DNA from: a virus
Taxonomy: Duplodnaviria > Heunggongvirae > Uroviricota > Caudoviricetes
Strand: one strand, 5' to 3'
IMG/VR virus record: IMGVR_UViG_2654587674_000004
DNA length: 6,776 nt
The position numbers were made by a program, and so were the translations under genes. Shown piece by piece: positions 1 to 5,330 of the stretch. Under the pieces are notes generated by a model, which saw only the letters and a list, made by a program, of their open reading frames with translations, had not been told where the DNA came from and searched no databases. Each line of letters starts with the position of its first letter. The stretch's first letter is position 1.

Positions 1-13
1 TTGTGGAGTGGAT

Positions 14-1288
14 ATGGCAGCAGTAAAAATCTCAGGTGTGCTGAAAGATTGTGCGGGAAAACCAATACAGAACTGCACTATTCAACTGAAGGCAAAGCGT
101 AACAGCACCACGGTACTGGTGAACACGGTGGCCTCTGAAAATCCGGATGAAGCCGGGCGTTACAGCATGGATGTTGAGCATGGCCAGTACAGCGTCATCC
201 TGCTGGTTGAAGGTTTTCCGCCTTCACATGCCGGGACCATTACCGTCTATGAAGGCTCCAGACCAGGTACGCTGAATGATTTTCTCGGTGCCATGACGGA
301 AGAGGATGTCATGCCGGAGGCATTGCGTCGTTTTGAGGCAATGGTGGAAGAAGTGGCACGCAACGCCGAAGCCGCCTCTCAGAGCGCAGCGGCGGCAAAG
401 AAATCCGAAACTGCAGCGGCATCATCGAAGAACGCGGCGAAAACCTCAGAAACGAATGCAGCTAATAGTGCACAGGCGGCAGCGACCTCAAAGACTGCAT
501 CGGCAAACTCAGCGACAGCAGCCAAAAAATCAGAAACCAACGCGAAAAACAGTGAGACAGCCGCAAAGACGAGCGAAACCAACGCAAAGTCCAGCCAGAC
601 GGCAGCGAAAACCAGCGAAACGAATGCCAAAGCCAGTGAAACTGCGGCAAAAAACAGCCAGGCTGCAGCAGCTGAAAGCGAGAGCGCGGCAGCCGGTTCT
701 GCGACTTCAGCAGCTGGATCAGCAACTGCTGCGGCTAACAGCCAGAAAGCTGCGAAGACGAGTGAAACTAACGCAAAGTCCAGCCAGACGGCAGCGAAGA
801 CCAGCGAAACGAATGCCAAAGCCAGTGAAACTGCGGCGAAAAGCAGTCAGGATGCAGCGGCCCAAAGCGAGAGTGCCGCAGCCAGTTCTGCAAGCGCGGC
901 GGCTGCTTCTGCCACTGCATCAGCTAACAGTCAAAAAGCAGCAAAAACCAGTGAAACCAACGCAAAGGTGAGCGAAACAGCGGCTGCGAACTCAGCGAAA
1001 GCATCGGCAGCAAGCCAGACGGCAGCTAAAGCAAGCGAAGATGCAGCCAGAGAGTACGCAAGCCAGGCTGCGGAGCCGTATAAATATGTCTTACAGCCGC
1101 TGCCTGATGTGTGGATACCATTTAACGATTCGCTGGATATGATTACGGGCTTTTCGCCATCATATAAAAAAATTGTTATTGGTGATGATGAAATAACGAT
1201 GCCTGGCGACAAGGTTGTTAAGTTTAAACGACAGGGACGGATAATTTTGGTTTTACCTATGGAAAGTTTGTCTGCAACGATTCTCTGA
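14..1288 (+). CDS. stf: Side tail fibre protein, Stf family: N-terminal tail-attachment domain plus Ala/Ser/Thr-rich repetitive shaft. At about 425 aa it is short for this family and may be truncated or split from the next ORF.
   Basis: The N-terminus (MAAVKISGVLKDCAGKPIQNCTIQLKAKRNSTTVLVNTVASENPDEAGRYSMDVEHGQYSVILLVEGFPPSHAGTITVYEG...) matches my recollection of the conserved N-terminus of lambda Stf and the K-12 prophage Stf homologues. GGAG at 5-8 sits 5 nt upstream of ATG 14; the ORF track's GTG at 8 is the less likely start. The body is KTSETNAK-type repeats. Confidence 0.8.
   Translation: MAAVKISGVLKDCAGKPIQNCTIQLKAKRNSTTVLVNTVASENPDEAGRYSMDVEHGQYSVILLVEGFPPSHAGTITVYEGSRPGTLNDFLGAMTEEDVMPEALRRFEAMVEEVARNAEAASQSAAAAKKSETAAASSKNAAKTSETNAANSAQAAATSKTASANSATAAKKSETNAKNSETAAKTSETNAKSSQTAAKTSETNAKASETAAKNSQAAAAESESAAAGSATSAAGSATAAANSQKAAKTSETNAKSSQTAAKTSETNAKASETAAKSSQDAAAQSESAAASSASAAAASATASANSQKAAKTSETNAKVSETAAANSAKASAASQTAAKASEDAAREYASQAAEPYKYVLQPLPDVWIPFNDSLDMITGFSPSYKKIVIGDDEITMPGDKVVKFKRQGRIILVLPMESLSATIL
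571..968. repeat. Intragenic tandem duplication in the stf shaft: 189-bp (63-codon) unit, two full copies plus the start of a third, embedded in a wider low-complexity region (about 370-1060)
   Basis: The motif ag(c/t)gaaac(c/t)aacgcaaagtcc recurs at 571, 760 and 950 (period 189). The encoded 63-aa units are near-identical (KSSQTAAKTSETNAKASETAAK...ANSQKAAKTSETNA). Confidence 0.85.
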
Positions 1289-1311
1289 TTGGGCAAACCT
1301 CAGCCATTAAT

Positions 1312-2217
1312 ATGGCATCAATTGCTGCAACAAAGTCAGTTGATGTCTCAGGCGATAATAAACACGTGACAACCTCATGTCGTTTTAAAACAGAACTGCA
1401 GGTAAGGTTGCGTATCCGGTTTGATAAATATGACGGTAGCGCAACAACTTTTCTTGGTGATGCGTATATTGATACACAAACGCTTGAAATTAATATGACA
1501 GGCGGTGCTGCCTCAAGGATTACAGCGAGAGTCAGAAAGGACGAAGCTACCGGATGGATTTTTGCAGAGGCAACAATTCAGGCAATTGATGGGGAGTTAA
1601 AAATAGGCTCTCAGATACAGTATTCTCCTAAGCAGAGCGGGGCAACCGTATCTGGTGACTATATTTATCTGGCCACCCCACAAGTAGAAGATGGGCCTTG
1701 TGTATCATCTTTTATTATATCAGGAGCGACGGCGGCGACCCGCGCAAGCGATATAGTTACAGTTCCAATTAAGAATAATCTTTATAATCTTCCTTTTACG
1801 GTTCTTTGTGAGGTACATAAGAACTGGTATAAAACGCCAAATGCAGCGCCACGTGTTTTTGATACCGGCGGTCATCAAACCGGAGCGGCTATTATTCTTG
1901 GCTTCGGTCGTTCAACAGATTACGACGGATTTCCTTATTGCGATATTGGAGGAGCTAACAGACGGGTAAACGAAAACGCATCGCTTGAAAAAATGGTTAT
2001 GGGGATGCGTGTAAAGTCAGAGCAGTCTACGTGCTCAGTAAGTAACGGGCATATATCCAGCGAAACAAAAACCACATGGTCCTGTATTCAGAACACCGCA
2101 ATTATCCGTATTGGAGGCCAGACTACAGCCGGGTTACGTCATTTATTTGGTCATGTCAGGAATTTCAGAATATGGCACAAGGCATTGACTGATGCTCAGG
2201 TGGGGGAGTCAATCTAA
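1312..2217 (+). CDS. Tail-fibre distal / receptor-binding protein with a C-terminal concanavalin-A-like (LamG-type) jelly-roll motif; possibly the distal part of a split tail fibre
   Basis: The C-terminal segment ...GLRHLFGHVRNFRIWHKALTDAQV fits the characteristic closing strand of LamG/ConA-like lectin domains (F-x-G-x-h-x-x-h-R-I-[YW]-x-[KR]-A-L-[ST]). Its reading frame is open from 1228, overlapping the 3' end of stf. Composition is beta-rich and Gly/Thr/Ser-rich. Confidence 0.6.
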   Translation: MASIAATKSVDVSGDNKHVTTSCRFKTELQVRLRIRFDKYDGSATTFLGDAYIDTQTLEINMTGGAASRITARVRKDEATGWIFAEATIQAIDGELKIGSQIQYSPKQSGATVSGDYIYLATPQVEDGPCVSSFIISGATAATRASDIVTVPIKNNLYNLPFTVLCEVHKNWYKTPNAAPRVFDTGGHQTGAAIILGFGRSTDYDGFPYCDIGGANRRVNENASLEKMVMGMRVKSEQSTCSVSNGHISSETKTTWSCIQNTAIIRIGGQTTAGLRHLFGHVRNFRIWHKALTDAQVGESI

Positions 2218-2498
2218 TGAAAGATTTAACACTCAAATTTGCCGACAGGGCCGACTTTTCGGCCTTTATGGAGAGTATTGGCTATTATGATGACGAGTCG
2301 ATGCAGGATGATATTCTTATTGACGTGATAGGTAACGTGTACAAAGAAACCGGAGAACTGACTGAAGATGGCGAACCGGTATGTGTTAAGGAAGACGGAT
2401 ATTTTGTAAACGTGCGCATCATTAATGATTCGCAAATATCGTCATTATTCGATGAATACGTGGTTGCTGTTGAGCATCAACTTCGTGGCTGGATGTGA
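2217..2498 (+). CDS. Small acidic hypothetical protein (93 aa), translationally coupled to the upstream gene; function unknown (possibly a fibre-associated chaperone or adaptor)
   Basis: The stop/start overlap TAATG at 2215-2219 couples it to the upstream ORF. The protein is strongly acidic (many D/E) with no predicted transmembrane segment. I do not recognise the family. Confidence 0.5.
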   Translation: MKDLTLKFADRADFSAFMESIGYYDDESMQDDILIDVIGNVYKETGELTEDGEPVCVKEDGYFVNVRIINDSQISSLFDEYVVAVEHQLRGWM

Positions 2499-2507
2499 GG
2501 AAGAAAA

Positions 2508-3548
2508 ATGGCTACATCGACAGTAATTCCTGATGACATCAAAACGCTAAAATCCGACGTTAGCAAATTAAAAAACGATCAAGGAAGCTACGCAACAAAA
2601 TTATATGTAGACAGCAAAGATGAAATCGTTGGTGACTGGTCTGCTTCATGGTATCAGCAGGTATTGCCAACTAGCGGAGCTATATTTGGGAGAAAACTCC
2701 GCTCAACTCACAGGACGGCAGGTGTTGAGGATGCGTATTGCGAACTATACCTCAAAAAATGGATAGACAGTCCAGGTAACGCAATGGCGCGCCTTAACCT
2801 GAACGATAACGGGACAAACATTTGCTGGGACTTTACCAACCTTTATGGCGGTACGATGATTTTTCCCGGTGACAGCGGATACCTCAAAATGGGTAACTGC
2901 CTTATGTCATACAGCAAGCGTGGAAGTAACGCGCTTATTAAATTTGATTACACCGACACATTACAGATCAAATATGCCAATCATGGGTCAACCATGACAT
3001 TAAACACACAGGGAACCGCTTATGCTGGTGTTACTGCTCAATTGTGGGGCAACTCCAGCCGTCCTGTTGTTTATGAAGTCGGTGTTGATGGTGGCGCTTA
3101 TATGTTCTATGCGCAGAAAAATACCGATAACACCTATATGTTAAGCGTTAATGGTGCATGTCATGCCACCGCATTTAACCAGCATTCCGACCGGGATCTG
3201 AAAGACAACATTCAGGTGATCGATAATGCAACCGACCGCATCCGTAAAATGAACGGCTATACATACACGCTTAAAGAAAACGGTATGCCCTATGCTGGTG
3301 TCATTGCACAGGAAGCTCTGGAAGCAATCCCAGAAGTTGTAGGTTCCGCAATGAAATATCAGGACGGTGCAAGCGGATCGGAAGGTGAAGAAGGTGAACG
3401 TTATTACACAGTAGATTATTCTGGTGTTACTGGCTTGCTTGTTCAGGTAGCCAGAGAGTCAGACGACAGAATAACAGCACTGGAAGAAGAAAATGCAGAA
3501 TTAAAACAAAGATTATCTGCAATTGAGGCGACGCTTGCGTCTAAATAA
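2508..3548 (+). CDS. Tail fibre / tailspike-like protein with a C-terminal intramolecular chaperone auto-proteolytic domain (peptidase S74 / endosialidase-chaperone type)
   Basis: The C-terminal 120 aa (...FNQH-SDRDLKDNIQVIDNATDRIRKMNGYTYTLKENGMPYAGVIAQEALEAIPEVVGS...YYTVDYSGVTGLLVQVARESDDRITALEEENAELKQRLSAIEATLASK) match the conserved S-D-x-x-x-K-x-N-I...G(V/I)IAQE...PE(V/A)V...VDY...coiled-coil pattern of the self-cleaving chaperone domain of phage K1F endosialidase and T5 L-shaped fibre. The Shine-Dalgarno GAGGAAG lies 7 nt upstream of ATG 2508. Confidence 0.75.
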   Translation: MATSTVIPDDIKTLKSDVSKLKNDQGSYATKLYVDSKDEIVGDWSASWYQQVLPTSGAIFGRKLRSTHRTAGVEDAYCELYLKKWIDSPGNAMARLNLNDNGTNICWDFTNLYGGTMIFPGDSGYLKMGNCLMSYSKRGSNALIKFDYTDTLQIKYANHGSTMTLNTQGTAYAGVTAQLWGNSSRPVVYEVGVDGGAYMFYAQKNTDNTYMLSVNGACHATAFNQHSDRDLKDNIQVIDNATDRIRKMNGYTYTLKENGMPYAGVIAQEALEAIPEVVGSAMKYQDGASGSEGEEGERYYTVDYSGVTGLLVQVARESDDRITALEEENAELKQRLSAIEATLASK

Positions 3549-3552
3549 TATT

Positions 3553-3577
3553 AAGGGGCCGAGCGCCCCGTTTTATT
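3553..3577 (+). terminator. Rho-independent terminator after the tail-fibre gene block
   Basis: GGGGC (3555-3559) pairs with GCCCC (3565-3569) around a 5-nt loop, followed by the T-tract GTTTTATT (3570-3577), immediately after the TAA stop at 3546-3548. Confidence 0.7.
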
Positions 3578-4106: not shown

Positions 4107-4241
4107 GCTAGTCTAGGCGGATTGTACTTAAGTAATATGACGGTTCAAGGCGTTTAATCTGAAACCAGCCACATATTAGCCTTTTCAAACATTTCCTGAA
4201 CACTCAGGCTTACCTGCTCTTTCTCGTGCTTGCTGGCATTT

Positions 4242-4275
4242 GTGTTGAGCGCCGGTGAATACTCTTACTCAACAC
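4242..4275. repeat. 8-bp inverted repeat with an 18-nt spacer (possible operator-like dyad)
   Basis: GTGTTGAG (4242-4249) and CTCAACAC (4268-4275) are exact reverse complements. Confidence 0.4.
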
Positions 4276-4347
4276 TCCCAGAATTATATCTGTTGCATCA
4301 GGCAGACCATCAAAATTCTTTTGTCATAAACGAGTTCCACGAATAAT

Positions 4348-4379: not shown

Positions 4380-5330
4380 GAGTAGCTAAAAAGATTTTTC
4401 GTTATGTATTAATGTATCTGTCACTTATTTTATAGTAAAGATGATATGCCAGCAAGAAATGGAGTAAATACTGTAATGTGTGCAGATACATTATTAATAA
4501 AGTCCTTATATGCTTCTTTAAAACAGCCGCTTTGGTGACTGGCTGCCAGTGCCTGTACATTATCTATAAGGTGTGATTCTGTCGCGCCATCAAAGTTTTT
4601 CGATTTTATTGCCTCAATCATTTCATTAAATATTGTGGGCTCATTATAATTTGTCGTAGTAGTTGCCGTAGCACCTGAAGAATGTATATTGATACTAGAA
4701 CCGGAAATTCCACTGACATGAATATTAGCTTCTTGTTTCATAAGAGGTAAACCATTCTCCATCTTGTATAGGTCACTATCTTGTAGCATCTGCAATGTGA
4801 TACGTACTGCTGCTAATAGTTGTTCTTGCTTTTTGAATAAGGAACACATCTGTTCTACAGACCAAAGCTGAACTGCATTTTCTTCGCATGTTTTTTTAGC
4901 TATATTTGGCACTTCCGAATCATAATTACCATAAACCCAAGTGTCCTTGAATCTTTCGATAATAGCTGTCAACGTTGGAAATTTACTGAAATCACTATTA
5001 ATGGATAGTAACTCATCAGACATATAAAGTGCCATATCTCTGCCTTCCGCATATACTGCTTCCACTTTATTCCGTGTTGCAAATGGTATTCTTGAAATAA
5101 AACGAAAATCCTCTTCATTTTTTAAATGGACCCAGTCTTTATCAAAACGGCTAAATTCGTACCCTATCGATAACAGTCTACTTATATATTGGGCTACTGA
5201 TTCCAAATCTTTTCTTATGTCCAAAGTATTACTCCTGCTTGTCAACCGAGTCTGTCGGTTTTCTTACAAATGGCTTGTCTTTAAAGTTCTGATTAAAAAG
5301 ACGCTAACCAATACTTAATAATACATGAAA
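4380..5330. other. AT-rich island of foreign-looking composition containing the orphan gene
   Basis: Hand counts on 60-nt lines inside 4441-5040 give about 30% GC, against about 50% in the tail-fibre and sit genes on either side. Confidence 0.7.
4430..5224 (-). CDS. Orphan hypothetical protein (264-271 aa) in an AT-rich island: helical N-terminal region, Ser/Thr/Gly-rich linker and hydrophobic C-terminal tail. Candidate accessory cargo (defence/exclusion, toxin or effector); function unassigned.
   Basis: Longest ORF is 4430-5245 with a TTG start. I prefer the in-frame TTG at 5222-5224 because AGGAG (minus strand, plus coordinates 5232-5236) lies 7 nt upstream of it; there is no in-frame ATG until about residue 71. 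The C-terminus AHITVFTPFLAGISSLL is hydrophobic and the linker reads HVSGISGSSINIHSSGATATTTT. I recognise no family. Confidence 0.6.
   Translation of the reverse strand: MDIRKDLESVAQYISRLLSIGYEFSRFDKDWVHLKNEEDFRFISRIPFATRNKVEAVYAEGRDMALYMSDELLSINSDFSKFPTLTAIIERFKDTWVYGNYDSEVPNIAKKTCEENAVQLWSVEQMCSLFKKQEQLLAAVRITLQMLQDSDLYKMENGLPLMKQEANIHVSGISGSSINIHSSGATATTTTNYNEPTIFNEMIEAIKSKNFDGATESHLIDNVQALAASHQSGCFKEAYKDFINNVSAHITVFTPFLAGISSLL

Follow-up and report, generated by a model that had tools for sequence, protein, structure and literature searches.

We found that the two fibre-like open reading frames at the start of the window (the whole 6,776-nt stretch of DNA analysed here) are parts of one tail fibre gene. 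Our preferred reading, to which we give a probability of roughly 0.7, is that a single lambdoid-prophage stf was inactivated by a private, out-of-frame 172-bp deletion at 1230|1231 in Escherichia coli EC-IMP153. The window copy is a pseudogene of the lambda-type Stf family: the continuous ORF from anchor to tip that is expected of such a gene is found in all homologues and breaks off after codon 408 in the window. The 301-aa 'LamG-type' ORF and the 426-aa 'short Stf' should therefore share one annotation, as a single stf pseudogene, instead of being entered as two genes. The initial annotation had recognized the first ORF's stop at 1288, the next frame already open from 1228 and its peptide TTGTDNFGFTYGKFVCNDSLIGQTSAINM, all correctly, and its idea of one Stf tail fibre split in two holds, since the homologues are continuous and an intact homologue spans PHROG 1419 end to end. 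Its proposal that a single −1 shift would fuse both parts into a fibre of ~730 aa does not hold; the lesion is the 172-bp deletion, the fusion would be 736 aa and still without 57 residues, and the intact size in relatives is about 791-793 aa rather than ~730 aa.

The window is the entire contig LJOJ01000083.1 (GCA_001443175.1) of E. coli EC-IMP153, an ST405 bloodstream isolate sequenced with MiSeq 2x250 reads and assembled with A5 (PMC6046176), a de Bruijn assembler working here on 250-nt reads. The authors of that study placed EC-IMP153 in a clade with 50579417 and Z1002 (PMC6046176), two complete ST405 E. coli genomes that we used as clone-mate references. By blastn the window is 100% identical to both over all 6,776 nt except at position 511 and at the 172-bp gap; position 511 is N in the deposited contig, A in the window and T in the relatives, and the N falls in the stf repeat region of the contig. 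In the clone-mates, which match the window as just described, J and lom precede stf, and an IS200C is inserted between lom and stf, directly upstream of the latter. The window itself begins at stf, and the position of IS200C accounts for the start of the contig 7 nt before the gene. This one short draft contig is the sole witness of the deletion junction.

Features of the stf region of the window (all coordinates are window positions)
Feature	Position	Strand	Description
stf 5' remnant	8..1288	+	426 aa from GTG 8; 424 aa from ATG 14; TGA 1286-1288
Shaft repeats in stf	548..967	+	189-bp (63-aa) unit, 2.2 copies, 83% identity
Deletion junction	1230..1231	+	172 bp (TGCATCGAAAGC...GATGTGCCCGAA) missing, present in all relatives
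stf 3' remnant	1231..2217	+	−1 frame; codons 466-793 of intact gene
93-aa gene	2217..2498	+	overlaps stf stop (ATGA); PHROG 1361; intact
346-aa tail-fibre protein	2508..3548	+	C-terminal Peptidase_S74 intramolecular-chaperone domain; PHROG 4563; intact

Of the two candidate starts of the 5' remnant, the ATG has a GGAG 5 nt before it and is the one used in phage annotations; it is likely the true stf start. Codons 1-408 of this ORF are native, encoding the PF08400 anchor, an Ala/Ser-rich repeat shaft and a linker that ends ...DKVVKFKR, and codons 409-426 (1232-1285) are 18 out-of-frame residues, QGRIILVLPMESLSATIL. Translation from the ATG (or the GTG) would thus yield 408 native residues and 18 nonsense residues before the stop. 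The second ORF, 1312..2217, is what an ORF finder reports from the first ATG of this frame, which is the internal Met493 of the intact Stf protein; the frame itself is open from 1228, just after a TAA at 1225-1227. The two frames overlap by 61 nt, and passage from the first to the second is a −1 shift. At the base composition of the window, 28 stop-free codons have a chance of ~0.20; taken alone the open stretch is not significant, and in our sequence comparisons it is homology that makes the feature real. In the second frame, 1231-1311 encodes residues identical to 466-492 of the continuous 793-aa protein of relatives, and in the alignment that the initial annotation had called for, every homologue includes this upstream in-frame extension in one continuous protein.

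Alignment with relatives identified the lesion. A megablast search with 900-2300 returned hundreds of near-identical matches in complete E. coli genomes and phages, each in two pieces that together span 1573 bp against the 1401-bp query. Pairwise blastn placed 172 extra bases of E. coli 7/2 between window positions 1230 and 1231, with colinear matches on both sides; the arrangement is the same in phages PhiR63_1 and VogelGryff and in the ST405 genomes 50579417 and Z1002. The missing bases run from the third base of codon 408 through codon 465, 57 codons and 1 nt in total, so the deletion is out of frame and shifts the reading frame of stf.

The intact gene is uniform in its architecture. The stf ORF is single and uninterrupted in E. 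coli 7/2, where it encodes 793 aa, and in 50579417 and Z1002. One intact allele lies at about 4745460-4747890 on the minus strand of NZ_CP033884.1. A single stf CDS is likewise annotated in seven phages, namely the lambdoid phages PhiR63_1, HannyBb, Tritos and 2G7b, the Nonagvirus ESCO3, the Seuratvirus VogelGryff (Bas25) and the Warwickvirus tunus, and in all seven it ends at the same ATGA overlap with the 93-aa gene. These phages share with the window a three-gene cassette (the fibre gene, the 93-aa gene and the S74 fibre protein). Compared with the window at the nucleotide level, the four lambdoid phages and ESCO3 are 96-99.7% identical; VogelGryff and tunus reach ~78-81%. Whereas the window copy is interrupted, these PHROG 1419-type phage fibres are single ORFs of 657-791 aa that retain the 57-aa block. 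The intact homologue matches positions 1-793 of PHROG 1419 (793 positions) at 1487 bits; in the window no full-length match is found, the second ORF matching only 490-793 and the first carrying the N-terminal part, and the PHROG positions for residues 409-465 are absent from the window DNA altogether. The fibre family is one already catalogued, as PHROG 1419 and, by PGAP, as 'phage head spike fiber domain-containing protein'.

The direction of the event follows from conservation. The 57-aa block ASKATYINKSGVLTEAAIDEPRFERDGLLIEGQRTNYMLNSESPASWGRSSNMDVPE is conserved in seven of seven aligned homologues (E. coli 7/2, PhiR63_1, Tritos, 2G7b, ESCO3, VogelGryff and tunus, with HannyBb left out). 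A broader alignment of 26 C-terminal regions, extending to 50% identity, has 74 invariant columns; 25 of them lie in this block, which accounts for 14% of the length. Judged by these alignments, no other part of the C-terminal domain is as conserved as the lost segment. Because it is so strongly conserved across homologues, we take it that the window lost sequence and that the relatives gained none. An insertion in the relatives was considered and rejected on the same ground, and also because the segment aligns to the RcGTA head fibre Rcc01080.

No microhomology was found at the junction by manual sliding (0 nt; a blunt join), and among direct and inverted repeats around both endpoints of the intact allele none pairs the two endpoints. 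We therefore rejected a repeat- or microhomology-mediated deletion; the blunt junction would instead point to an illegitimate, homology-independent event. The junction appears nowhere else that we looked. A junction-centred 50-mer had no megablast match when 5,426 complete genomes of E. coli were searched; with blastn at word size 11, every match among the 25 records listed fell into two pieces that span 222 bp. The exact junction 37-mer had 0 matches in GTDB representative genome contigs and 0 in JGI metagenome contigs, and the shortened protein, with three alternative N-termini, had no exact database record. The lesion is private to the EC-IMP153 assembly, being either a very recent deletion or an artefact.

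The second of these, in which the gap arose during library preparation or assembly (for instance through a chimeric fragment, a fault in error correction or graph simplification, or the assembler's choice of an allele from a minority sub-population) and the strain has an intact stf, is the one alternative that we take seriously, though we consider it unlikely. The deletion is unique to this contig, which is otherwise 100% identical to the two clone-mates, and the contig is a short one of 6.8 kb with an IS200C boundary at its start and an N in the stf repeats. Moreover, such genomes hold the 5' part of stf in multiple copies, at a median of 2 places per genome, and two other apparently split copies are scaffolding artefacts with N runs. 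Against this, the junction carries no N, and there is no endpoint repeat or shared k-mer that could mislead a de Bruijn assembler. Given such an assembler and the lack of any repeat shared with the surroundings, reads spanning the junction must have existed; since a 250-nt read exceeds the 172-bp gap in length, the junction k-mers must derive from real reads. A junction with no N, repeat or microhomology and a gap shorter than a read together favour a real deletion. Genuine stf lesions also occur in other strains.

These came from a survey of the 301-aa ORF, which figures as a gene of its own in the calls for 18 contigs; we examined ten, one of which is the window. Among the other nine, four simply begin inside the gene, two are N-run scaffold joins (L005 and L012), and three carry independent lesions: IS1 has inserted into one (L004, in the complete genome AP022478), a TGC>TGA change creates a nonsense codon in another (L006), and four bases, ATTA, are duplicated in the third (L011). 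The split copies fit sporadic decay of a dispensable prophage gene. The scenario that would have counted against the split-gene reading of the initial annotation, the same two ORFs in homologous intact prophages, is refuted; the homologues have a single ORF and the other splits share no architecture with this one.

The same survey bears on the suggestion of a genuine two-gene mosaic, that is, a functional fibre made by recombination, with anchor and shaft on one protein and a lectin-like tip on the other. Siphovirus lateral fibres can be built from one or several polypeptides (PMC8594841), and gene calls for the 301-aa ORF recur as just described. Yet the module is one gene in every viable phage that has it, seven of which are listed above, and in the clone-mates; the nine other contigs listed show no common architecture; and the sole difference from the intact clone-mate gene is a loss of conserved coding sequence. 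The first ORF ends in its 18 out-of-frame residues, and the second lacks both a Shine-Dalgarno sequence and the first half of its domain. No Shine-Dalgarno sequence precedes ATG 1312, whereas each of the next two genes has one, which suggests that the 301-aa fragment is poorly translated; efficient translation from this ATG is unlikely on such sequence grounds. With no ribosome-binding site and no anchor, the 301-aa ORF would not be an independent gene. We regard a functional two-gene fibre as extremely improbable.

The idea that a one-base error, or a ribosome programmed to slip by −1, within 1228-1288 yields a functional fibre of ~730 aa has next to no chance of being right. The frames do overlap by 61 nt with the needed shift being −1, but there is no X XXY YYZ slippery heptamer between 1200 and 1290, and the overlap is free of homopolymers. 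The flanks match intact relatives at every base on both sides and so hold no one-base indel, and the fusion product would be without the 57 most conserved residues. The homopolymer sequencing error that had been put forward fails for a related reason, the only such run being an A7 at 1166-1172, outside the overlap and identical in relatives. The pseudogenising frameshift in a prophage came closest of the three options originally offered; pseudogenisation is the favoured reading, with the 172-bp deletion rather than a single-base shift as its cause.

Returning to the deletion, its likely consequences depend on the domains it affects. The N-terminal anchor is a clear prophage tail fibre N-terminal domain (PF08400, phage_tail_N; residues 5-134, 220.2 bits against a cut-off of 26.6). 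The shaft repeats have sub-periods of 21/42 bp (7/14 aa), and they are followed by a conserved linker, VLQPLPDVWIPFNDSLDMITGF... Beyond it, the intact protein matches NF048003 (phage head spike fiber, GTA; an NCBIfam profile of 182 positions with a curated cut-off of 36 bits) at 50.5 bits over residues 437-637 and profile positions 1-181, whereas the second ORF of the window reaches 32.4 bits, below the cut-off, and covers profile positions 92-181 only. Homology to Rcc01080, found with phmmer at E = 1e-7, extends over Stf residues 406-652 and begins at F406, three residues before the deletion. The 3' remnant holds the remainder of this head-spike-fibre-like region, which is probably lectin-like and receptor-binding.

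A lectin-like fold for the C-terminal domain is plausible; the earlier 'LamG-type' label is weakly supported, with PF13385 (Laminin_G_3) scoring 18 bits against its cut-off of 27.6, and the curated match is NF048003. The C-terminal 416 aa of the intact protein, modelled with AF2, are rich in beta-sandwich (mean pLDDT 68), with confidence confined to residues ~70-240. From this moderate-confidence model, the top Foldseek pdb matches were to laminin LG4-5 (tandem LG domains), with E = 4e-5 and TM of only 0.22-0.25; Pseudomonas phages Pa193 (baseplate complex and tail fiber) and E217 (tail baseplate) were also matched, at a low TM of ~0.3. For the deleted segment pLDDT is below 50 over much of the length, so its structural role is argued from conservation.

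For siphoviruses carrying this module, O-antigen or LPS glycans have been proposed as a primary but non-essential receptor to which the lateral fibres bind (PMC8594841), and the C-terminal domain may be the distal, glycan-binding, receptor-recognition part of the fibre. Rcc01080 mediates attachment of RcGTA to capsular polysaccharide (PMC7296036), and by analogy its homology suggests glycan binding by the Stf domain. Rcc01080 is, however, no tail fibre: it is located at capsid vertices, to which its N-terminal (I/L)-G repeat attaches it. Its PDB entries (6TB9) resolve only residues 2-10, and the homologous domain is compared here by sequence.

The deletion would remove the start of the receptor-binding domain and uncouple the remainder from anchor and shaft. 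Virions, if made, would bear at most fibre stubs consisting of anchor and shaft without a tip, and the sequence predicts loss of stf function. Should the EC-IMP153 prophage prove inducible, we would expect virions without functional side-fibre tips. By analogy with lambda, whose side fibres speed adsorption and are dispensable for plaque formation (PMC12617516), such a loss should slow primary adsorption without abolishing infectivity.

The closest known parallel is the stf lesion of lambda PaPa. As PMC12617516 cites Hendrix & Duda 1992, the frameshift of lambda PaPa relative to Ur-lambda (orf401/orf314) prevents side-fibre assembly and leaves plaque titre unaffected. In both cases a frameshifting lesion splits a lambdoid stf into two ORFs, and the genes share the PF08400 anchor family and the position after J-lom. 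Lambda PaPa, a laboratory phage, carries a frameshift mutation, while the lesion of the window is a 172-bp deletion that also cost 57 conserved residues and so cannot revert by a single base. The C-terminal domains differ too: that of lambda is gp37-like, with an OmpC-binding tip and a Tfa chaperone, whereas that of the window is GTA-head-spike-fibre-like and lectin-like, and is followed by the 93-aa gene and the S74-domain fibre protein. Directly downstream of stf the window lacks the Tfa-type chaperone gene that goes with a lambda-type Stf; Pfam and NCBIfam gave no Tfa-type match in the 93-aa and 346-aa products, their only match being Peptidase_S74 in the latter. In phages the 93-aa gene is always 3' of this fibre gene, and the 346-aa gene is the third of the fibre cassette.

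We think it very unlikely that the deletion was retained as useful, with the tip-less stub or a free, lectin-like 301-aa fragment made from ATG 1312 altering surface properties or phage susceptibility of the ST405 bloodstream clone, or with the lesion marking domestication of the tail module. The window copy is an ordinary strain-specific pseudogene, or less probably the product of an assembly error, and is mechanistically nothing new and of little import beyond annotation. For annotation it carries two cautions: a short overlap of frames may conceal a large deletion and not a one-base slip, and repeat-rich fibre genes are often mis-modelled, in draft and complete genomes alike. Among the neighbouring small ORFs, PADLOC gave a sub-threshold match only. 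The prophage adjoins sitABCD in EC-IMP153.

The block at 1088-3548, comprising the C-terminal region of the side-tail-fibre protein Stf, the 93-aa gene and the S74-domain fibre, occurs in temperate lambdoid prophages as well as in three genera of virulent siphoviruses (compared loci L003, L017 and L018). Nucleotide identity to the window is 96% in the Nonagvirus ESCO3 and ~78-81% in the Seuratvirus VogelGryff and the Warwickvirus tunus. VogelGryff reaches 98.5% identity over a 137-bp stretch (window 1094-1230). These figures point to receptor-binding modules having been exchanged horizontally in recent times. The identity of VogelGryff falls close to where the 172-bp segment missing from the window at 1230|1231 ends, and the drop marks a mosaic boundary.

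Other E. coli strains carry independent stf lesions. In L004 (AP022478) there is an IS1 insertion with target duplication; L006 has a TGC>TGA nonsense change at codon 480 and is also missing one 189-bp shaft repeat, a loss that is in frame; in L011 a 4-bp ATTA duplication lies immediately ahead of Met493, the internal methionine at window ATG 1312. Apparent stf splits at two further loci (L005 and L012) were rejected as real lesions, being artefacts of N-run scaffolding.

Annotation also divides stf where no interruption exists. RefSeq/PGAP splits the uninterrupted 791-793-aa ORF (L001 2115-4490; L019 and L020 4615-6990), labelling an N-terminal piece a 'partial pseudogene' alongside a 'phage head spike fiber domain-containing protein' of 416 or 678 aa; the cluster of the 416-aa form has 364 member sequences. 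The low-complexity Ala/Ser shaft seems to provoke this division systematically, as an artefact of annotation. Three long ORFs overlapping the shaft in other frames (Table) were rejected as genes, since they are a mechanical result of the stop-poor Ala/Ser repeats. Within the shaft, position 511 is N in the stored record LJOJ01000083.1, A in the window and T in all close relatives. Because this position falls inside multi-copy repeats, the discrepancy suggests that the consensus is collapsed or ambiguous at this site.

Upstream, the ST405 clone-mates carry IS200C between lom and stf (L019 4036-4601), ending directly before window position 1; the contig breaks at the window start because the element abuts there. 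IS200C could influence stf transcription throughout the lineage.

At the downstream end, a GC-rich hairpin lies 7 nt past the stop codon of the gene for the 346-aa fibre protein and looks like a bidirectional terminator, predicted to close the fibre operon. The DinI-like pseudogene is a second decayed gene at the prophage end. The isolated lambdoid phages PhiR63_1, HannyBb and Tritos encode in the corresponding region a Pin-type DNA invertase, which the window lacks. The 264-aa ORF had no match in Pfam, NCBIfam or PHROG, and its sole PADLOC match was sub-threshold (PDC-M14B, E = 0.0017).

Features at the prophage end and ORFs overlapping the stf shaft (window positions)
Feature	Position	Strand	Remark
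GC-rich hairpin GGGGCCGAGCGCCCC	3555-3569		T-runs on both strands
DinI-like gene	4154-4340	-	frameshifted pseudogene by annotation of identical clone-mate sequence
264-aa ORF	4430-5224	-	between prophage end and sitD
Alternative-frame ORF	306-971	+	221 aa
Antisense ORF	379-819	-	146 aa
Antisense ORF	931-1296	-	121 aa

Among database matches to the E. coli fibre gene, MG065692.1, an unannotated 99.9-kb record under the name 'Campylobacter phage C13', aligns with 66% of the query at 80% identity; matches also come from three Listeria phage records, and a partial homologue (protein P0108) carries the label Alistipes onderdonkii. These records are probably mislabelled or contaminated.
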